DNA of 64,000 nt, taken from positions 3,136,001-3,200,000 of the forward strand of contig OY762428.1 of assembly GCA_963665665.1 (NCBI GenBank), written 5' to 3'. The notes below the pieces were generated by a model. The model made no database searches, had not been told where the DNA came from, and saw nothing but the letters and a program-made list of their open reading frames with translations. This stretch comes from Candidatus Kapaibacterium sp. GTDB taxonomy: Bacteria > Bacteroidota > Ignavibacteria > Kapaibacteriales > UBA2268. Every line of letters starts with the position of its first letter. Position 1 is the first letter of the stretch. The position numbers and the translations under genes were made by a program. Of this stretch, positions 11,666-19,679 are shown piece by piece.

Positions 11666-12337
11666 TTACCTGCCTTCAACTACCAAAATTTCCACTCTCC
11701 TGTTTTTTCTTCTGCCTTGTTCCGTATCATTTCTGGCAAGAGGGTTTGTTGCCCCACGGCCTGTAGAAAGGATAAGTCGCCTGCTTAACCCTTTACTTAA
11801 CAGATAATTTACAACATTTTCAGCTCTGCTTTGGGATAATCTGAAATTTTTAGAAGTTGATAATGTATTATCAGAATATCCGACGATTCTAATTTCATAT
11901 CCCTCGTTGGCTTTACAGAATTCAATAATTTTATCTAAGTATTCGATCAGTGCCGGGTACATATCAGTATCTTCAGTCTTTTGATATGGAAATTTCTCGG
12001 TTTTTTCGATAATAAGTGTGTCGGGTGTTTTGATCTCAGTTTCTACTAATGGATATTCTGTAATTTCTCCGTCAATCATTTCTTTGCTGGGGGATGAACT
12101 TAATACCATCGCCACAGGTTCTGACTTATGAATATGAGGCATTCTACTGTCTTCACCTGTTTCAGGCGGCTCCAACAGTTTTATTGAAGTATCTGCTTCT
12201 TTCTTTTCATTATCGGCGGTTTCAGGCGGCTCCAACAATTTTATTGAAGCATCTGCTTCTTTCTTTTCATTATCGGCAGTTTTGCATGATGAAAGAACTA
12301 AGATAGAAAGTATGATTAACGTCAATATTTGTCTCAT
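11666..12337 (-). CDS. OmpA-C (peptidoglycan-binding) domain lipoprotein
   Basis: Lipobox LSSC; GYSDN, NFRLSQSRAENV, GRGATNP and GRRKNRRVEI. Confidence 0.88.
   Translation of the reverse strand: MRQILTLIILSILVLSSCKTADNEKKEADASIKLLEPPETADNEKKEADTSIKLLEPPETGEDSRMPHIHKSEPVAMVLSSSPSKEMIDGEITEYPLVETEIKTPDTLIIEKTEKFPYQKTEDTDMYPALIEYLDKIIEFCKANEGYEIRIVGYSDNTLSTSKNFRLSQSRAENVVNYLLSKGLSRRLILSTGRGATNPLARNDTEQGRRKNRRVEILVVEGR
12159..12282. repeat. In-frame 60-bp tandem duplication inside the OmpA lipoprotein gene
   Basis: Two near-identical 60-bp units encode TADNEKKEAD(A/T)SIKLLEPPE twice. Confidence 0.9.
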
Positions 12338-12404
12338 TATAATATTCTCTGATTAATTGATAGTAAAAAGCCACTTTATAATTAATGTCATTATCAGAAA
12401 CACC

Positions 12405-12917
12405 TTAATTTTTCATCACTAAAATTTCCACTCTTCGGTTTTTTCTTCTGCCTTCTTCGTTGTTATTTTTTGCTATAGGCTGAATTGGCCCCCTTCCTGT
12501 AGATAATATGTGCTTTTTGCTTATTCCTTTGCTTATTAGATAATCCGTTACTTTTTTTGCTCTTATCTTCGATATTTCATAATTTTTTTCCATTGATAAC
12601 GAGTTGTCGGAATGTCCGATTATCCTGATTGTATATCCGTGGTTTGTTTGCAGGAAGCCGGCTACTTTATCTAAATATTCGATCAGAGAGTCATAAAGGT
12701 TACTGTCCTCAGGTTTATCATAATAGAAAATTTCAATTTTTCCGATAACAATTGGAAGTGGCATTGTGATTTCAGCAGACTTTTGTGAAACGGGTTTTTC
12801 GCTGATATTATCCAGTTTTTTTACTTCGCTGCCGGAATGGCTGCTATCTGATTCTGTAGTCTTGCATGATGTAAGTATCAAAACCGTAAGTAATATTAAG
12901 GTGGAAATATATTTCAT
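12405..12917 (-). CDS. OmpA-C domain lipoprotein (tandem paralog)
   Basis: Lipobox LTSC; GHSDN, SKIRAKKV and GRRKNRRVEI. Shares LIEYLDK and ILSTGRG with the neighbouring gene. Confidence 0.88.
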   Translation of the reverse strand: MKYISTLILLTVLILTSCKTTESDSSHSGSEVKKLDNISEKPVSQKSAEITMPLPIVIGKIEIFYYDKPEDSNLYDSLIEYLDKVAGFLQTNHGYTIRIIGHSDNSLSMEKNYEISKIRAKKVTDYLISKGISKKHILSTGRGPIQPIAKNNNEEGRRKNRRVEILVMKN

Positions 12918-13005
12918 GTTCTTATCCCGGTAAATTCAATATCATGATTTTTAGTAATATAAATATCATTAAAATAATATACAAACAAAGATTTGCAATT
13001 TTTTA

Positions 13006-14013
13006 TCAACTCCATTTTGATTCAAACCACAAATAGGCCTTAGGATTGGTCATTTCAGGTGTAAAAGTAAATTTAAAATGGTGAAATCCCATAAATGTTT
13101 CTATCAATCTGATTTTTTGGTTTCCGCTAACAAGGTTTATTTCATTGTCGTGGTAAACAGGTTCCGGAATCATGGGAATAATCCCTGCAATATTATCAAT
13201 TAGAAGGTTGCTGCTGATCATTTTATCGATTAGAATCTCGGTTTTTCTTTTCTGGATAAAATCAAAACTGTTATTGATAAAACATTCCACCCCGATTCTG
13301 TCCGATAGATTTCCGCCAACAATGCTAAGCTGCAATGAAAATACATCGAAAAATTTATTATATAAAGAAACAAATTGTAACAGATTATCTATTCCGGTTT
13401 CGGAATATCCTGACAGGGTTAGAAAACTTTTAATATTCCCGGGATTAACCGAAGATATTAAAAGCCTGACTGCGTTGTTTTTACGGCCAAGCATTATGCC
13501 AATGCAATTCAGATTAGATTCCGGGGGCATAGCTGATACTATCGTTGATATTTGCTGAATGGTATTGGGATTGATTTCAGAACTTTCTTTTCCCATGGCT
13601 TTGCTTATGGCAGTGAAATAGTCCTTTGTTATATTGAAATTTTCCTGGTTTATACCCCAGAAATATGAAGGGTAAGGCACAAAATCATTCTTTCCGGTAT
13701 CGTATTCATACCAGGTGAAATCAATATGATCCTTAAGTTCACTTGAAAAAAGTAAATTTGCTTTCAGATCAGTGTGTTTTGCGATATTATCTGAATGAAG
13801 AAGATTAACGGAGTTCCTGCCCAGCTTTGATAAAGATAATAGAAGGTCAGCCCCCGGAGTGCTAATATTGCATGGGAATTCAAAACCCGATAAAAAATAT
13901 GCTAATTCGGCAGGTAAGCGGGAAGATAAATCAAATATTGCTTTTCTGCTTTTTGAAGAAATTGTATTGCAAATCCGCCGGAGAGGCGCTTCTATGTAGT
14001 CCGAAAGAACCAT
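13006..14013 (-). CDS. Uncharacterised cytoplasmic enzyme, putative ABBA-fold aromatic/peptide prenyltransferase-like protein
   Basis: No signal peptide or TM helix. The ordered motifs GFE..., ADLLL, WYEYD, PSYFWG, IGIMLGR..AVRL, RIGVECF, HHFK and KAYL resemble a W-x-E-x-D / KAY family that I recall as prenyltransferase-like. The CDS is clear; the function is inferred. Confidence 0.5.
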   Translation of the reverse strand: MVLSDYIEAPLRRICNTISSKSRKAIFDLSSRLPAELAYFLSGFEFPCNISTPGADLLLSLSKLGRNSVNLLHSDNIAKHTDLKANLLFSSELKDHIDFTWYEYDTGKNDFVPYPSYFWGINQENFNITKDYFTAISKAMGKESSEINPNTIQQISTIVSAMPPESNLNCIGIMLGRKNNAVRLLISSVNPGNIKSFLTLSGYSETGIDNLLQFVSLYNKFFDVFSLQLSIVGGNLSDRIGVECFINNSFDFIQKRKTEILIDKMISSNLLIDNIAGIIPMIPEPVYHDNEINLVSGNQKIRLIETFMGFHHFKFTFTPEMTNPKAYLWFESKWS

Positions 14014-14167
14014 AATTATTCATTTCCAAAATTTTTTTTAGCTTAAATTAAAAATTTTCGTGATTTTTTTTACATTTTTCTTTATATTATTAAAAGTTAA
14101 ACTGAATATAAAATCCGAAAGACTATACTTTTGAAATTCCATTTACTAACAATCACGAGAGGATACA

Positions 14168-14629
14168 ATGGCAAAAATTGAATTCAAAGACCTCGAACAG
14201 AATGCAGAACTTGATGCCGATGCAATGAAAAAAGTTGTAGGCGCAGGCCTTTACGACAAATCAACCGGTGTATATGGAAATACCGGACATAAGCATGGCG
14301 GTGATGCTACAAATCAGGGCGATCAGGCCGGCGGAGCCGGTGGAGCCGGTGGAAGTTCGCGGGGTTCAACCTGGGGCTGGAACCAGGGCGGCGGCGGCGG
14401 AAGCGCATCGCAATCTGCCGGTGGCGGCGGCGGTGGCTGGCTTAGTGCCGGCGGCGGCGGTTCCATTACTAATTCCAATGCTACAGGCGGAGCCGGTGGT
14501 GGTGTAACTGATATTGGCGCTGTAGGCGGTGCCGGCGGTGCCGGTGGCGCTGCTGTAGGAGCTATGGGCGGTGCTGTATCAGACCAGATTACTAATTCTG
14601 TCAGCATCCCGGTAACTATGAATATCTAA
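14168..14629 (+). CDS. Gly-rich precursor protein 1 with a double-glycine-type leader
   Basis: GAGAGGA RBS; leader MAKIEFKDLEQNAELDADAMKKVVGA (26 aa); GGA-repeat core; C-terminus IPVTMNI; followed by a terminator. Confidence 0.8.
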   Translation: MAKIEFKDLEQNAELDADAMKKVVGAGLYDKSTGVYGNTGHKHGGDATNQGDQAGGAGGAGGSSRGSTWGWNQGGGGGSASQSAGGGGGGWLSAGGGGSITNSNATGGAGGGVTDIGAVGGAGGAGGAAVGAMGGAVSDQITNSVSIPVTMNI

Positions 14630-14653
14630 GTTCATTTAAAGATGATTTTTTAT

Positions 14654-14687
14654 ACCCGGGATATTAGTATTCCGGGTTTATTTTTTT
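14654..14687 (+). terminator. Rho-independent terminator after precursor 1
   Basis: ACCCGGGATA-TTAG-TATTCCGGGT followed by TTATTTTTTT. Confidence 0.7.
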
Positions 14688-14700
14688 AACTGGAAAAAAA

Positions 14701-15189
14701 ATGGTAAGAATTATAGCAATCATTGTATTACTGGCAATTACAGTTCTTGCTTGTGATGATGACAGTACATCGGCGAAGCCAACAGGGCAGGATACTTTAA
14801 TAGCAACAATCAGCGGTTCAAAAGTTCTTGAATTTTCAGCACAGGGAGTGAACGTGAATATTTACCCTCAGGATGGTTTTGATCTTGCGCTATATTCCGG
14901 AACCATGATTGAAAATACAAGCCATATTTATTCTGTTTATTTTGCTCTTATCGACAGTAGTGATACTTACACTTTCGATTTGGCCGGCAGCGAAGGTTTT
15001 ACCCGTTTTGAATATGATATAGGTATGGCCGGGGCAATTGTTTATGGCGACAGCATAAGTGGAAAAGTGGTTGTTTCTGAAGTTACAAAAGATTATATTA
15101 AAGGCAGTTTTGATTTCGAGGCGGTTAATAATAACGGTTCCGGAAAAGTAAGCATAACAAACGGCTATTTTGTTCGTTATAAAAATTAA
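14701..15189 (+). CDS. Beta-rich lipoprotein (DUF6252-like)
   Basis: Lipobox VLAC-DDD; C-terminal SGKVVVSEV..IKGSFDFEA...VSITNGYF. Confidence 0.7.
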   Translation: MVRIIAIIVLLAITVLACDDDSTSAKPTGQDTLIATISGSKVLEFSAQGVNVNIYPQDGFDLALYSGTMIENTSHIYSVYFALIDSSDTYTFDLAGSEGFTRFEYDIGMAGAIVYGDSISGKVVVSEVTKDYIKGSFDFEAVNNNGSGKVSITNGYFVRYKN

Positions 15190-15219
15190 ATACATTGAAA
15201 AACCTGAAGCGGAGTATAT

Positions 15220-15639
15220 ATGGCTAAGATTTCTCTTCACGACCTTGACCACAAGAAAGAAATAAGCAGCGAGGAAGCCGACAGTATTATCGGAGGAAGC
15301 AATAACTATGGCATGGCTGCCAATACAGGAAGCAAAACCGGCGGGAATGCAACTAATAACGGCGATATTGCCGGAGGCGCAGGAGGGGGCGGAGGAAGCG
15401 CCACAGGTAATACTTATGGCAACAACACGGCCGGATTTGGCGGATCGGCTAACCAATGGACTCCGTTTGGTTCAATTGCCGGATCGAATGTAACCGGCGG
15501 TGCTGGCGGTTCTGTAACAAACATTGGTGCCAAAGCCGGAGACGGTGGTGCGGGCGGAAATGCCGTGGGTGCTGAAGGCGGGGCTGTAACTGACAATATT
15601 ATCACTGAGATAAATATTCCGGTAACGATGAATATTTAA
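15220..15639 (+). CDS. Gly-rich precursor protein 2 with a double-glycine leader
   Basis: GGAG RBS; leader MAKISLHDLDHKKEISSEEADSIIGG (26 aa); core collinear with precursor 1; identical C-terminal IPVTMNI. Confidence 0.8.
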   Translation: MAKISLHDLDHKKEISSEEADSIIGGSNNYGMAANTGSKTGGNATNNGDIAGGAGGGGGSATGNTYGNNTAGFGGSANQWTPFGSIAGSNVTGGAGGSVTNIGAKAGDGGAGGNAVGAEGGAVTDNIITEINIPVTMNI

Positions 15640-15834
15640 AATATTATAACTTAGACGTGATTGTTTTTAAGTATTTCAAATTTCCTGTCGATTAATTCAT
15701 AAAATGGGCATTTGCAAGGAGTGTCCTGCTATGGATAATAATTATATTCCAATGAAACATTAGCCTGATAGTATCGTATAATAACCACCCGTCCGTTTTT
15801 AGTTATTTGTTTGGTTTAATTTGTCAGGTTATTT

Positions 15835-18075
15835 ATGAATAAACGCTACTTAATTATCGCGGGTATTTCTATTTCGCTGATAGCAATGGAAATTTCCTGG
15901 ACTCGTATTTTTTCTGCCGAATTCTTCTATACCTTTGCTTTTTTGATATTATCTACGGCTGTTCTCGGCATAGGGCTCGGAGGGCTTGCTCTTCGATATG
16001 TTAAAGCATTCAACCGTGACGTAGTGGCAAATCTGTCTATGTCATTGTCAGGTTTGTTTATTTTGCTGGGGCCTGTTCTTGTATTTCAGATAAATCCGGA
16101 ATTCACAAAGATATTTGCCGGATTAACTGATTTTCTGAAGGTATTCAGTTCCGGAATAATTCTCGGGCTTCCCTATTTCTTTGGGGGTATGGCACTCAGT
16201 TATTTATTTAAGAAAAATTACAGTGATATGCCCAGGATGTACATGTGGGATATGGCCGGTGCGGCATTTGGAGTAATAATTGCTATTGCTGCAATGAATA
16301 TTTGCGGCACTCCGAGGGCTGTAACATATACTGCTATGCCCATTTTATTTGCCGGGCTTATTGCATCCGGGAATTGGCAAAAGATTATTCCTGCAATATT
16401 AATTATTGCAACTGCAATTGGCGGATTCTTTTCTGAAGATATGCTTCAAAAACAAAACAGGCAGGAAAGAGCAAAGGTTATTTATACTCATTGGGATGCA
16501 ATGGCGAAAGTAAAAATGTACGATTTCGAAGGCCAATACAGGGGGCTGAATATTGATAATGTTGCCAATTCACCGGTTTTTCCGTTTGACGGGGAAATTG
16601 ACAGGCCGGATTCTTTGAAGTATCATTTCAATATTAATGTCGGAAATTTGATTCGTATGTTCGATTCTTGTAGATTTCTTTCGCTTGGCGCCGGTGGCGG
16701 CGGTGATGTCCTAATGGCATTGCAGGAAGGCGCTGCCGAGATTCACGCCGTAGAGGTGGTTCCGCATATTAATGATATGATGACAGAAGGGATGCTATCA
16801 GAATATACCGGCAATATGTATAATTTACCACAGGTGAAAGTTGTAACAGAAGATGCCCGGGCTTACAGCCGAATGTTCGAAAATAAATTTGATATAATAT
16901 ATTCTTTAAGTTCCAATTCCTGGGCTGCACTTGCCTCAGGGGCATTTGCCCTTGCCGAGAATTACCTGTTCACCGAGGAGGCTTTCCGGGATTACTGGAA
17001 TGCTTTAAGCGATAAAGGGTTTATGAGCATGGAACATCAGTTCTATATGCCGAGAATTGCAACAATGGTGGAACAGGCGCTTTGGAAAGAAGGGGTTGAC
17101 GATCCTGACAAACACTTTGCTATATATCATCTTCCGCACATGAGAAGAATGCTTCTTCTGCTTTCAAAAAGAGAATTGACTCCTGAGCTTTTGGCTGCTG
17201 CTTACGGTAGTTCTGTACCAAACAGGAGGGACTATAAGTATTTACTTTATCCGGCAGCTGATTCACTGAAAGGCAACCTGATAAACAGGATAGTTACCGA
17301 AGGCTGGGAAAATGTACAGGATTCTGCACATGCAGATATTTCTCCATGTTCCGATGACAGGCCATTCATAGCTCAGCTCGGTTTGTGGAAAAATTTCAAA
17401 TCTGACAATATGGAACAACTGCCGCAATACGAATTTATGGGTTATCCGTTGTCCAAGCTGATCATTTTAATGATATTGGCATTAGCGCTGATAATTATAC
17501 TACCGTTAAATTTAATACCTTTTGCGTTTAAATCTTCAAGGCTCGGGATTCGGCCATGGATGTATTTTTTTATGATAGGTATGGGATTTATGATAATAGA
17601 GGTGATATTAATTCAGCAGTACTCCCTGTTTATCGGGCCATCTGTATGGAGCATTATTACCGTGCTTTTCACCATGCTGATTGCTTCCGGTATCGGCAGC
17701 CGCTATTCGGAAATGTTTGCTGATAAAATTGTGTTCATGGCAATAATTGCCTGGGTAGCGCTCAATATTCTTGTTTTTACAAACCTGTTCGGAGTTTTTG
17801 GCGGGCTTCCTTTAGTACCGCGTATGCTGATTTCAGCAATAATGATAGCCCCGGGTGGTTTTTTCATGGGTATGCCTTTTCCAAAAGCTGCACAGAAAGT
17901 CGGTGAAAATGTGGACTGGGGCTTTGCCGTGAATGGTATGGCCTCGGTTCTTGGTTCTACCGGGATACTTCTGGTAGCATTCGAGTTCGGATTTGATATA
18001 TCACTTGTTGTGGGCGCCTTGTGCTATTTAATTGCTATGTTTTTATCGGGTTTTAATAAACCTGTACAGGCATAA
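15835..18075 (+). CDS. Membrane-embedded spermidine-synthase-like class I SAM-dependent transferase
   Basis: N- and C-terminal TM bundles (EISWTRIFS, GMPFP, WGFAVNG) flank a soluble domain with LSLGAGGGGDV, HAVEV, EDAR, FDII and ENYLFTEEAF. Confidence 0.8.
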   Translation: MNKRYLIIAGISISLIAMEISWTRIFSAEFFYTFAFLILSTAVLGIGLGGLALRYVKAFNRDVVANLSMSLSGLFILLGPVLVFQINPEFTKIFAGLTDFLKVFSSGIILGLPYFFGGMALSYLFKKNYSDMPRMYMWDMAGAAFGVIIAIAAMNICGTPRAVTYTAMPILFAGLIASGNWQKIIPAILIIATAIGGFFSEDMLQKQNRQERAKVIYTHWDAMAKVKMYDFEGQYRGLNIDNVANSPVFPFDGEIDRPDSLKYHFNINVGNLIRMFDSCRFLSLGAGGGGDVLMALQEGAAEIHAVEVVPHINDMMTEGMLSEYTGNMYNLPQVKVVTEDARAYSRMFENKFDIIYSLSSNSWAALASGAFALAENYLFTEEAFRDYWNALSDKGFMSMEHQFYMPRIATMVEQALWKEGVDDPDKHFAIYHLPHMRRMLLLLSKRELTPELLAAAYGSSVPNRRDYKYLLYPAADSLKGNLINRIVTEGWENVQDSAHADISPCSDDRPFIAQLGLWKNFKSDNMEQLPQYEFMGYPLSKLIILMILALALIIILPLNLIPFAFKSSRLGIRPWMYFFMIGMGFMIIEVILIQQYSLFIGPSVWSIITVLFTMLIASGIGSRYSEMFADKIVFMAIIAWVALNILVFTNLFGVFGGLPLVPRMLISAIMIAPGGFFMGMPFPKAAQKVGENVDWGFAVNGMASVLGSTGILLVAFEFGFDISLVVGALCYLIAMFLSGFNKPVQA

Positions 18076-18094
18076 TGAAATATTAGGGTAAATC

Positions 18095-18132
18095 AAAAAA
18101 GCCTTCCGGACATTTTGGACGGGAGGCTTTTT
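18095..18132. terminator. Bidirectional terminator
   Basis: AAAAAAGCCTTCCG...CGGGAGGCTTTTT between convergent genes. Confidence 0.75.
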
Positions 18133-18211
18133 GTTTGCCAGCTGAAAAAATTATGATGGAATTAATGGCTTATGAATTTATGGATATTGTGAATCTGCCG
18201 ATAAGCAAGTA

Positions 18212-18844
18212 TTATCGGAAATCGATAATTTCAACTCCTTCGGGCGGAGTGAATTTAAAACTGTTGCTACTGATATTACTGTTTACATTTAAATTTTCAA
18301 TTATCCATTTCAGAAAATCATTATCTGATTCGATACCTACCGCGATTATCGAGAGGTCTTTCTTCGAAAGCCATATTTTAACCCTGCGAATATCATTTAT
18401 TGCTTCATCTTCATTATCAGGTTCCAGTTCCAGGAAATAGACGCTTCCCCTGCCGGATTCAGTCATCGAGGTAAGGCCAACGGGGTAATACTTTTCAAGA
18501 AAAATAAAAAAGAACTGCTCCAGGCCGGCATCAGCACTTTCTGCATCATAATCGCTGATAACTACATTTTTATCTGTTTTTGAATAGTTCCATATTGTTT
18601 CACCGTCGCATACTATCCGGCGTGTTCCAAGAAGCAGGTTGTATTTATTCCCACGTACCGCCTTCAGCTTTCCTTTCAGCCCGGGTTCACTTTCCAGCGA
18701 GAAATCAACAGAAACAGATTCAATTTCACCGTATTTGGCAATCAGGTTGTTGTAAACATCGTCTTTGTCCGGTTCAAGGGCAAAAACCGGTAAAATACTA
18801 TTCAGCAGCAGAAGCAATCCCGTAATAATTGTTTTTTTTATCAT
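18212..18844 (-). CDS. lolA: Outer-membrane lipoprotein carrier LolA family protein
   Basis: Signal peptide from ATG 18844; GNKYNL, IVCDGETIWNYS...VVISD and C-terminal FKFTPPEGVEIIDFR. Confidence 0.85.
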   Translation of the reverse strand: MIKKTIITGLLLLLNSILPVFALEPDKDDVYNNLIAKYGEIESVSVDFSLESEPGLKGKLKAVRGNKYNLLLGTRRIVCDGETIWNYSKTDKNVVISDYDAESADAGLEQFFFIFLEKYYPVGLTSMTESGRGSVYFLELEPDNEDEAINDIRRVKIWLSKKDLSIIAVGIESDNDFLKWIIENLNVNSNISSNSFKFTPPEGVEIIDFR

Positions 18845-18848
18845 AATA

Positions 18849-19679
18849 TTAATTATCCCTGATCTTTGCATCGACTTTACCCCGAACACCTGAATATTTT
18901 GTAAGCTCGGCCCCGACATATCCTATCAGTATTTTTGTGGCTACCTTCACCGGAATTTTCCTGTCATCATCAGTAAGCCACACAAGAATTTTACCTTCGC
19001 TTTTAAACAGCCCGCCTTTAACAACCATTGGCTCGACAACTACGCATTTAAACTCTCCGGCTTTTACTTCAATTGTCTGCCTGCCCCGAATTTTCACTCC
19101 GAGCTGGTAAGTAGAATCCTTGTAGAAATTCTTCAGCATAATAGTGCTGTCCTTTGGAATATTTTTCAGGTCCATAGTCCGCACGTAAAACAAAGCAGAA
19201 ACAATATCATGAACATAGGGCGGGATATCAAAAGTATCGGTTTTCTTTTTATTGCGGGTATATGCCTTATGATTTTGCTGGTCGAAATCGGCATACATAT
19301 CTCTTTTATATTTTCCTTCGCGAATATGCTGTTCGAAAAGATAGGGGAATATCCCGCCAATATCAATTACAGTCCTGTAGGCGTCTTTCACCCGGTATAG
19401 CATATCAAGAGCTGGAAGAGACCTTACCTCGAAGCGGATATCATAGCATTTTCTGCCGTCGATAACCACAGGTTCCGGCAGAATATGGAAATATCCCGTT
19501 CCGGCAGTAATAAATTTGTAACCAACATCGTATTCAAGTTTCTCTCCAAGTCCGAATGCTTCGTTCGGAACGTAGCGGTACGAAGGAGTTTCAAAGTCGG
19601 ATTTTTCCTGTGCAGTAGAAAGGGAATGAATTCCGGCCACAGAAAATATTATCAGTATTATTTTAAAAATTTTATGCAT
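18849..19679 (-). CDS. DUF3108 domain-containing protein
   Basis: Signal peptide; FGLGEKLEY, YRVKD, EGKY, DIVSALFYVR, VKAGEFKC and WLTDDDRKIPVK. Confidence 0.85.
   Translation of the reverse strand: MHKIFKIILIIFSVAGIHSLSTAQEKSDFETPSYRYVPNEAFGLGEKLEYDVGYKFITAGTGYFHILPEPVVIDGRKCYDIRFEVRSLPALDMLYRVKDAYRTVIDIGGIFPYLFEQHIREGKYKRDMYADFDQQNHKAYTRNKKKTDTFDIPPYVHDIVSALFYVRTMDLKNIPKDSTIMLKNFYKDSTYQLGVKIRGRQTIEVKAGEFKCVVVEPMVVKGGLFKSEGKILVWLTDDDRKIPVKVATKILIGYVGAELTKYSGVRGKVDAKIRDN

Follow-up and report, generated by a model that had tools for sequence, protein, structure and literature searches.

Analysis of a 64,000-nt window of the Candidatus Kapaibacterium sp. genome (GCA_963665665.1, contig OY762428.1; labelled G000 in our comparisons) revealed two glycine-rich open reading frames (ORFs) with double-glycine (GG)-type leaders, next to an enzyme with a predicted ABBA prenyltransferase fold and a lipoprotein. 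We propose that positions 13006 to 15639 of this window are the central part of a biosynthetic cluster, both rare and conserved, for glycine-rich proteins that would be modified and exported, an explanation which, taken as a whole, has in our judgement about an even chance of being right. The two leader-bearing ORFs and their neighbours are real: all five ORFs described in a previous sequence-only reading of this DNA were found where it had placed them. The features of the locus are as follows.

13006..14013, minus strand: enzyme, 335 aa, cytoplasmic, with a predicted ABBA prenyltransferase fold; unnamed family, clade linked to Gly-rich precursors
14014..14167, no strand: intergenic region of 154 bp between the divergent enzyme and precursor 1 genes, 79.9% A+T
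14168..14629, plus strand: precursor 1, 153 aa, with a 26-aa leader ending VVGA and a 127-aa core
14654..14677, plus strand: terminator-like hairpin directly 3' of precursor 1, whose 10-bp stem includes 5 G-C pairs and precedes a T-run
14701..15189, plus strand: lipoprotein of 162 aa whose signal peptide ends in VLAC, followed by DDDS; DUF6252-related
15220..15639, plus strand: precursor 2, 139 aa, with a 26-aa leader ending IIGG and a 113-aa core
15835..18075, plus strand: membrane protein, 746 aa, previously claimed to be a SAM-dependent transferase

The AT-rich divergent intergenic region reported earlier is present, and promoters in both directions are presumed to lie within it. A scan for sigma-70-like promoters gave 20 sites, not above the 16.2 +/- 3.6 expected from shuffled sequences. 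Terminator-like sites in the region were also close to expectation (6 versus 5.6), and the hairpin at 14654-14677 is a consensus match only.

Both precursors carry the 26-residue leader with the E(L/I)-x4-(M/A)-x2-(V/I) pattern that had been proposed, which reads E14-L15-x4-M20-x2-V23-V24-G25-A26 in precursor 1 and E14-I15-x4-A20-x2-I23-I24-G25-G26 in precursor 2; G25 is invariant in 13/13 members of the precursor family. Searching the genome for further leaders of this type with a leader profile (28,556 ORFs of at least 40 aa) returned precursors 1 and 2, one third paralog and nothing else; the three proteins, all Gly-rich, matched with E about 1e-14, and the next match had an E value of 3.6. 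The cores of precursor 1 (127 aa, 35% Gly), precursor 2 (113 aa, 28% Gly) and the third paralog (129 residues) are devoid of Cys. Precursors 1 and 2 both end in IPVTMNI, and the candidate substrate proteins are 139-155 aa long. Structure prediction for precursor 1 modelled a helix at leader residues 6-23, the remainder having a pLDDT below 50, and core fold prediction gave no fold (pLDDT 36.2). No sequence similarity was detected between the precursors and the bacteriocin models of Pfam and NCBIfam. The aromatic residues previously put forward as modification targets are present (Y29, WGW and WLS in precursor 1; Y30, TYG and WTPF in precursor 2) but conservation is lacking: among 13 aligned members of the family, none of the aromatic columns is invariant, and Trp is absent from P0157 and from the precursor-2 type protein of locus L018. 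The Trp or Tyr targets typical of this enzyme class therefore cannot be universal here.

Orthologs of the precursors were found in two other genomes and in several metagenomes. Precursor 1 shares 75% identity over 118 residues with its L018 ortholog by BLASTP (77% in a full-length alignment) and 68% with its ortholog in genome G590; P0002, from locus L026, is also of the precursor-1 type. The corresponding values for precursor 2 are 67% (L018) and 47% (G590), and the precursor-2 type is the most widespread of the family, including 6/6 further aligned members (P0155-P0160). When the precursor genes of the window genome are compared with those of L018, synonymous changes are saturated (pS 0.72-0.83) and pN is only 0.19-0.23, a pattern indicating that both Gly-rich ORFs are under strong purifying selection. 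Since orthologs exist elsewhere and pN is far below the saturated pS, the features of the precursors are more than chance. The family is very patchy, being found in 1 of 401 sampled genomes of the phylum; in the order of genome G401, 3 of the 200 genomes sampled contained it, one of them as a partial match only.

The sequence-only reading had suggested a divergent prenyltransferase-like enzyme at 13006-14013. In agreement with this suggestion, the predicted model displays the ABBA prenyltransferase fold, a ten-stranded antiparallel beta-barrel made of alpha-beta-beta-alpha repeats, and shows the 335-aa protein, at the level of a structural model, to be a divergent member of this fold. Most of the solved ABBA enzymes matching the model act on small molecules. 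By sequence, the enzyme matched no Pfam family at E<=0.1, its profile gave nothing significant against PDB sequences (E 1.6), and none of the 44 aligned homologs or 106 further homologs matched Trp_DMAT (PF11991), PTase_Orf2 (PF11468) or DUF5838 (PF19156). The ESM Atlas provided leads only, at 0.88-0.89. Nine residues are invariant (E45, D56, E103, D105, R177, H312, K314, K325 and Y327); together with R183, conserved at 90% or more, they sit on or just after barrel strands in the model. The charged residues that are invariant across the family are retained in the clade linked to Gly-rich precursors. A prenyl donor could be supplied by either of two polyprenyl synthases encoded in the genome.

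Sequence comparisons place this enzyme in an unnamed family, other members of which are found in class II lanthipeptide clusters or fused to MstE-like cyclases. P0011, P0076 and P0103 match the family profile nearly end to end (205-331 bits; positions 7-359 of 363 for P0011), and P0069 matches it at positions 30-354 (133 bits). A C-terminal domain of the squalene-hopene-cyclase type (E<=0.002) was found in 4 of the 106 further homologs, 2 of them above the Pfam cut-off; residues 392-673 of P0011, a protein that the window enzyme itself matches at E 1.2e-10, match MstE (6sbb) at E 2.1e-48. Two of the six homolog neighbourhoods fetched in the phylum (L012 and L014) are clusters with an NHLP precursor, LanM and JmjC. 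The enzymes of the window, L018 and L026 belong to a single 11-row clade (SH-like support 91), which stands outside a 117-row clade containing the lanthipeptide-linked and fused members. Examining the loci of this 11-row clade bore out the predicted association with GG-leader Gly-rich precursors: the enzyme gene is divergently paired with a precursor-1 gene in the window, L018 and L026, all three of the loci having upstream DNA, and these come from genomes of 52% and 39% GC. No terpene cyclase domain was found in the enzyme or in the cassettes of the window and L018; the genome's only SQHop_cyclase_C match, in a 340-aa protein encoded 114 kb away, has only repeat-level similarity to the cyclase domain of P0011. 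No LanM or LanC domain was detected in the proteins scanned from 11666-19679 or in L018, and neither cassette showed any genes for small-molecule biosynthesis.

An exporter acting in trans had been anticipated, and a single C39-peptidase (PF03412) ABC exporter was found in the genome, about 0.8 Mb from the cassette. This 1023-aa protein contains two cNMP-binding domains followed by C39, ABC_membrane and ABC_tran domains, keeps the catalytic Cys motif, and has an HlyD gene upstream. It shares 67% identity with the exporter of the L018 genome, compared with 67-75% for the precursors and 57% for PdxA. The third Gly-rich paralog, which was absent from the earlier description, lies 1.36 Mb from the cassette with two SurA/PpiC-like proteins; in L018, the cassette, the third paralog and both SurA-N/PpiC-like genes form one contiguous stretch. 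The two candidate partner proteins lack a signal peptide (251 and 428 aa in the window genome); one has a parvulin domain and the other is made of repeated SurA-N-like units. TIGR04500 describes a PpiC-related putative peptide maturation system protein. Matches to this model scored 46.9 and 86.8 bits for the 251- and 428-aa proteins and 69.1 and 101.2 bits for their L018 orthologs (E 2e-12 to 6.5e-29), and no protein in a whole-genome scan exceeded the curated NCBIfam cut-off of 180 bits. By sequence, the pair is related to TIGR04500 without belonging to it by the curated threshold.

The lipoprotein matches DUF6252 (E 4e-05, 24.3 bits; cut-off 27.2) and the Riean_0653 family (32.3 bits; cut-off 57), and its ESM Atlas neighbours are DUF6252 clusters, chiefly from Bacteroidota. 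Its position between the precursor genes is kept in L018 and in G590 (37% identity in each), and this DUF6252-like protein is a candidate immunity or handling protein. The downstream membrane protein was dropped from the module it had been assigned to: in the L018 genome its ortholog (55% identity) is found 18 kb into a different contig, and a paralog exists in the window genome. The only support for its label as a SAM-dependent transferase comes from spermidine-synthase matches that stay below threshold (Pfam E 0.0086, 16.1 bits, cut-off 22.9; NCBIfam 21.9 bits, cut-off 260).

Our best explanation, in which we place half of our confidence, is that the enzyme prenylates the precursors, that the C39 exporter cleaves and secretes them, and that the products are membrane-active, with the lipoprotein providing immunity or handling. 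The enzyme would act in the cytoplasm, using a prenyl diphosphate as donor to attach an isoprenoid group to the core of leader-bearing precursors, of which each genome would provide three (precursor 1, precursor 2 and the third paralog), probably with the help of the two signal-less SurA-N/PpiC-like proteins related to TIGR04500/MirC. The single cNMP-C39-ABC exporter and HlyD would cut the leader after G25-(G/A)26 and secrete lipidated products of 113-129 residues. Outside the cell, these would most likely be membrane-active in the manner of microcins, the least certain step of the scheme, and the DUF6252-like lipoprotein would confer immunity or assist in handling. In this genome, 1.36 Mb separate the enzyme from the third paralog and the candidate partner proteins, which counts against this explanation. 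So do the TIGR04500 scores below the cut-off, the absence of an invariant aromatic residue from the precursor family, and the G590 assembly discussed below. A further difficulty is that conservation within the cluster is by a wide margin lowest for the enzyme gene (23-26% identity, dN 0.94) and highest for its supposed substrates (dN 0.22-0.28).

The same biosynthesis could instead yield products that are not antagonistic but cooperate in a lipid-anchored surface or extracellular assembly, the lipoprotein being an assembly or anchoring factor. We regard this as rather unlikely overall, although several observations speak for it. G000, G401 and G590 each retain all three ortholog types. For bacteriocins, such strong conservation of three ortholog types is uncommon, which counts against a microcin-like role. 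No other genes of the cluster are as constrained as those of the precursors, with dN values of 0.22-0.28 (0.22 for precursor 1, with dS saturated) versus 0.49-0.94 for the rest, a pattern that suits structural proteins more than bacteriocins. There are also dedicated chaperone-like proteins, and no gene was recognised as encoding a small membrane immunity protein. Conversely, the extreme patchiness of the family fits accessory or antagonistic functions, the core has no predictable fold, and GG leaders with a peptidase-containing exporter (PCAT) and a membrane-fusion protein are, in the account given in PMC10233263, best known from bacteriocins and signals.

It is less probable still that the Gly-rich proteins are exported unmodified, similarly to class IIa microcins, and that the enzyme is merely co-located or co-regulated and acts elsewhere, for instance on a small aromatic metabolite. 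The lack of a conserved aromatic acceptor, the strong difference in evolutionary rate between enzyme and precursors, and the small-molecule substrates of most matching ABBA enzymes would fit such a scheme. So would the precursor-lipoprotein-precursor cassette of the G590 assembly, in which no match to the enzyme family was found, the contig stopping 137 bp upstream of precursor 1. However, the divergent pairing of enzyme and precursor 1 at every locus with upstream DNA, in genomes of 52% and 39% GC, the grouping of the three enzymes in one clade, the occurrence of other family members in RiPP clusters and the lack of small-molecule biosynthetic genes in the cassettes of the window and L018 all argue against it. 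Least probable, and to us very improbable, is a role for the ABBA-fold protein on the precursors other than prenyl transfer: that of a leader-binding scaffold, a chaperone or a catalyst of a different transfer. The enzyme indeed matches no Pfam prenyltransferase family by sequence, but the nine invariant charged or aromatic residues at the barrel strands of the model argue for a conserved active site, and the terpene-cyclase fusions make sense only with isoprenoid attachment.

The proposed prenylation system can be compared with NctPC, described in PMC13290415 as an ABBA-barrel prenyltransferase that shows low similarity to those of the cyanobactins, carries a fused MstE-like cyclase and geranylgeranylates Trp (Hubrich et al., Chem 2024, as cited via PMC13290415 and PMC12715784). 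Based on that review's description rather than on the NctPC sequence, the window enzyme resembles NctPC in its ABBA barrel, its low similarity to cyanobactin prenyltransferases and its family's presence in RiPP clusters; the family includes proteins that join a full-length family member at the N-terminus to a C-terminal MstE-matching domain, the architecture described for NctPC, so that its cyclase fusions appear to be of the NctPC type. Unlike NctPC, the window enzyme is stand-alone, belongs to a separate clade and has no cyclase in its cassette, and its candidate substrates are Cys-free Gly-rich proteins of 139-155 aa with a GG leader and no conserved Trp, not lanthipeptides. According to PMC12715784, the leader-dependent ABBA prenyltransferase MppC of a cyanobacterial class II lanthipeptide geranylates Trp C5 of a heptapeptide core that has a Nif11-type leader and has already been macrocyclised by LanM. 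As described there, MppC is a precedent for leader-dependent prenylation, a soluble ABBA enzyme acting on a leader-bearing ribosomal precursor before export; the system proposed here differs by having no LanM, no Cys, very long cores and another leader type. The absence of Cys from the three cores also sets them apart from lanthipeptides, LanM occurring only beside other family members (L012, L014).

Class II microcins share with the window system an N-terminal GG/GA leader, Gly-rich cores, several precursors per exporter, and a C39-peptidase ABC exporter with a membrane-fusion protein. As outlined in PMC10233263, their leaders have 15-18 aa and their cores 60-90 aa (5-10 kDa), and class IIb members are modified in the cytoplasm before export, as we propose here, by siderophore-attachment enzymes. 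Here the leader has 26 aa and the cores 113-129 aa, a length which, set against the range given in that source, counts against a microcin-like product. The exporter is also 0.8 Mb away and has two cNMP-binding domains, the tailoring enzyme has a prenyltransferase fold, and the candidate immunity gene encodes a lipoprotein. The SurA/PpiC-like pair recalls MirC, a TIGR04500 member which PMC13097080 reports to be required for a graspetide synthetase in a cluster with a PCAT: in both cases, signal-less SurA-like chaperone-domain proteins are associated with a known or proposed RiPP-type system that uses, or would use, such an exporter. In contrast to MirC, there are two proteins here, they score 47-101 bits against the 180-bit cut-off, and the proposed partner enzyme is an ABBA prenyltransferase and not an ATP-grasp ligase.

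Collectively, the pairing of an ABBA-fold enzyme with Gly-rich proteins carrying a presumably cleavable leader suggests that the probable products of this cluster are lipid-decorated secreted proteins, which would be of a kind not described before.

The genes around the ABBA-fold enzyme are the central portion of a RiPP-like cluster that is both rare and conserved. The parts of this cluster are a new clade of ABBA-fold enzymes, three Gly-rich proteins, a DUF6252-like lipoprotein, two partner-type proteins related to TIGR04500 and a C39 exporter acting in trans. The five ORFs described by the sequence-only reading were all found where it had placed them, and are listed here with their flanking genes.

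Cassette and flanking genes in the window
11666-12337 and 12405-12917, minus strand: a tandem pair of OmpA-domain lipoproteins, immediately downstream of the enzyme
13006-14013, minus strand: ABBA-fold enzyme, 335 aa
14168-14629, plus strand: Gly-rich precursor 1
14701-15189, plus strand: DUF6252-like lipoprotein, 162 aa
15220-15639, plus strand: Gly-rich precursor 2
15835-18075, plus strand: polytopic membrane protein, 746 aa, with a central domain weakly like spermidine synthase
18212-19679, minus strand: LolA1-like lipoprotein chaperone gene and DUF3108 gene, sharing about 70 bp and located downstream of the membrane protein

Both Gly-rich ORFs carry a 26-residue leader that fits the proposed double-glycine pattern and ends in VVGA or IIGG. 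Their predicted mature parts (127 and 113 residues; 35% and 28% Gly) are free of Cys and mildly acidic. The gap between the enzyme and precursor 1 measures 154 bp, with an A+T content of 79.9%; promoter-like sites showed no enrichment over shuffled sequence. Between the window genome and the genome carrying L018, another locus with the cassette, synonymous sites are saturated (pS 0.72-0.83) and pN is only 0.19-0.23. The Gly-rich ORFs are real genes, with orthologs in other genomes and a pN well below pS.

The membrane protein was ruled out as a part of the module: its ortholog in the L018 genome (55%) lies 18 kb inside another contig, among unrelated neighbours. It has a paralog in the window genome at 2367524-2369761 and behaves like a housekeeping gene. 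The matches behind its earlier label of SAM transferase are all sub-threshold ones to spermidine synthase. Neither of the tandem OmpA-domain lipoproteins was found beside the L018 cassette; the first (11666-12337) contains a duplicated EKKEAD(A/T)SIKLLEPPET stretch. The LolA1-like/DUF3108 pair looks like an ordinary outer-membrane biogenesis context.

The enzyme matched no Pfam or NCBIfam model, and a word-indexed homolog search recovered the enzyme alone. At E<=0.001, exhaustive HMMER searching detected 171 relatives; eight reach E<=1e-10, and the best non-self match is 29% identical. None of the 150 relatives listed (0/44 and 0/106) matched the Pfam prenyltransferase families. The family has nine invariant residues (E45, D56, E103, D105, R177, H312, K314, K325 and Y327), and all of them sit on or beside barrel strands of the structure model. 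In the clade linked to precursors, E45, D56, E103, D105, R177, R183 and E243 show no variation, and at least 90% of the rows have H312, K314, K325 and Y327. We infer that the conserved residues are putative prenyl diphosphate binders. A C-terminal domain of the squalene-hopene-cyclase type (E<=0.002) was present in 4 of the 106 further homologs listed, two of which exceed the Pfam cut-off; the N-terminal domains of these fusions are full-length family members, and the C-terminal domain of one homolog (P0011) matched the monodomain cyclase MstE at E 2.1e-48. In another of the homologs listed, the fusion partner is a 2OG-Fe(II) oxygenase. The architecture of the cyclase fusions is that described in a review (PMC13290415) for NctPC, an ABBA prenyltransferase joined to an MstE-like cyclase. 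Published enzyme lists may overlap with this unnamed ABBA family at the sequence level. Nine of the 401 genomes sampled in the phylum, including the window's own, encode a member, and none was found in six genomes of the same taxonomic family.

A candidate for a cyclase acting in trans was considered and set aside. The 340-aa protein, a monodomain alpha/alpha-toroid, scored 46 bits against SQHop_cyclase_C, and 75 of its residues aligned with squalene-hopene cyclase 1gsz (E 4.5e-11); its similarity to the fused cyclase domains is only at the level of repeats, and it has no MstE match at E<=0.01.

Further features in the window genome
3265106-3266128 (L042:1237-2259): monodomain alpha/alpha-toroid protein, 340 aa, after a TolC-like gene and 114 kb from the enzyme
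1787010-1789772 (L021:4011-6773): third Gly-rich paralog with proteins of 251 and 428 aa

The association between enzyme and precursor was found again at other loci. When the collection of species-representative genomes was scanned for the pattern, L018 was the sole other locus, with the same gene order as the window: enzyme on the minus strand (23% identity, E 2e-16), a gene of the precursor-1 type (75%), the lipoprotein (37%) and a gene of the precursor-2 type (67%). The closest homologs of the enzyme led to a metagenome contig (L026), where an enzyme homolog is divergent from a precursor-1-type gene that runs off the contig end. In genome G590, precursor 2, lipoprotein and precursor 1 lie in the same order. 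Just 137 bp of contig remain upstream of precursor 1, and this fragmented assembly gave no match to the enzyme family. The enzyme therefore adjoins precursor 1 in all three loci with upstream DNA (window, L018 and L026), a count that does not include G590. In a FastTree phylogeny of 147 domain sequences, which has SH-like supports only and many long branches, the three precursor-linked enzymes fell in one 11-row clade (support 91). The lanthipeptide-linked and cyclase-fused members belong to a clade of 117 rows (support 98), and the 11-row clade lies outside it. At the L018 contig end, the 300 bp after precursor 2 (L018:8440-8738) carry repeated palindromic units (ccgaaggtttaaaaccttcggtaggtt), which may have caused the assembly break there.

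Other members of the enzyme family occur in different settings. Two of the six neighbourhoods fetched (L012 and L014) are class II lanthipeptide clusters, in which an NHLP-type precursor, LanM and a JmjC protein adjoin the enzyme homolog. L012 also contains a LytTR regulator and, about 4 kb past the enzyme homolog, a C39-ABC exporter.

Neighbourhoods of enzyme homologs
L012:5051-17357 (G399), lanthipeptide cluster in the window's phylum: NHLP-type precursor, LanM, JmjC protein, ABBA-family enzyme
L014:4246-10575 (G128), lanthipeptide cluster in the window's phylum: NHLP-type precursor, LanM, JmjC protein, ABBA-family enzyme
L016:9137-11232 (G143): two tandem ABBA-family genes, adjoining an S8/pro-kumamolisin peptidase and 7TMR-DISM signalling proteins

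The products of L012 and L014 are likely prenylated lanthipeptides. There is a precedent in MppC, a characterised lanthipeptide prenyltransferase of the ABBA type that depends on the leader (PMC12715784). The remaining four neighbourhoods showed differing or unclear contexts, without a Gly-rich precursor. L016 represents yet another, distinct context for the family. An enzyme-family gene in genome G532 has no Gly-rich neighbour; a partial precursor-like match lies there in a stretch reading N.

The third Gly-rich paralog lies at 1.789 Mb in the window genome. It divergently adjoins two signal-less proteins, one of 428 aa with SurA-N-like repeats and one of 251 aa with SurA-N and a PpiC rotamase domain. 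Directly upstream of the L018 enzyme lie orthologs of both SurA/PpiC-like proteins (47% and 45%) and of the third paralog (68%), and the single L018 cluster therefore corresponds to two loci of the window genome. The four chaperone-like proteins (two per genome) scored 47-101 bits against NCBIfam TIGR04500 ('putative peptide maturation system protein'), under its curated cut-off of 180 bits. Work from 2026 on one TIGR04500 member, MirC, showed that a graspetide synthetase requires it as a partner; the two co-purify, and a C39-peptidase ABC exporter (PCAT) is encoded in the same cluster (PMC13097080).

The leader profile matched only the three Gly-rich proteins (E about 1e-14), the next match among 28,556 genome ORFs of at least 40 aa having an E of 3.6. 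It was preferred to a generic double-glycine regular expression, which gave 17 unconvincing matches over the genome and missed the true three. The genome search found one C39-peptidase gene, located away from the cassette and preceded by an HlyD gene. In its product of 1023 aa, a pair of cNMP-binding domains comes first, and C39, ABC-membrane and ABC-ATPase domains come after. The L018 genome likewise has one C39 exporter, and both exporters keep the catalytic Cys motif; the two are 67% identical over 917 residues, a value like that of the precursors and above that of PdxA (57%).

The precursors are the slowest-evolving genes of the cluster (dN 0.22-0.28) and the enzyme is the fastest (dN 0.94). 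The aromatic residues proposed as lipidation targets are present in both precursors, yet none of the aromatic columns is invariant in the 13 members of the precursor family, some of which have no Trp. The invariant non-Gly positions in these 13 members are N38, K42, N49, N72, Q82, A129, D139, P148, T150 and M151. Structure prediction of precursor 1 from seven sequences gave a mean pLDDT of 36.2, the leader helix being the sole modelled part; prediction of the enzyme-precursor complex scored 0.01 against a mark of 0.32, a result that speaks neither for binding nor against it. As a conjecture, the GGX-periodic core might form polyglycine-II helices.

Of the 401 phylum genomes sampled, the window genome alone showed the precursor family. 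Among 200 genomes from the order to which the L018 genome belongs, three gave a match, and one of those matches was partial. Profile searching of a 5.8-billion-protein collection returned nine family members, the window's own among them, and a metagenome scan with the precursor alignment found no relatives. A search of sequencing runs listed none of RNA. No prenyltransferase paired with Gly-rich double-glycine precursors was found in the main texts of the open-access literature searched.

Putative prenylation of the precursors is the best-supported mechanism, to which we give an even chance. A broader proposal, which we put forward tentatively and consider somewhat improbable, is a new class of ribosomal prenylated proteins, in which three co-evolving Gly-rich double-glycine-leader proteins of ~11 kDa would be lipidated by a stand-alone ABBA prenyltransferase working with SurA-like, TIGR04500-related partners and released by a cNMP-regulated C39 exporter. 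If true, prenylation of the RiPP type would reach beyond short peptides to Cys-free cores of protein size; the enzyme would be the first prenyltransferase to depend on a partner of chaperone type, and the product the first of microcin-like kind to be lipidated. In its working the cluster resembles a hybrid of prenylated RiPP and class IIb microcin, and it belongs to no curated family; the known cores of class II microcins are smaller than those found here. Peptide prenylation is known from cyanobactins, ComX-type pheromones and, since 2024-2025, a few lanthipeptides, and to our knowledge the substrates in all these systems are short peptides.

The cluster draws attention to a protein family that no present model in Pfam or NCBIfam detects, and it offers a concrete gene set (one enzyme, three precursors, two partner proteins, one lipoprotein and one exporter) that would suit a field seeking genetically encoded lipopeptides. 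If the working inferred here is true, an isoprenoid on protein-sized, Gly-rich, Cys-free cores with a bacteriocin-type leader would be new, an unannotated clade of ABBA enzymes would have a new class of substrate, and the enzyme would possibly be a second RiPP enzyme type needing SurA-like partners, as MirB needs MirC.
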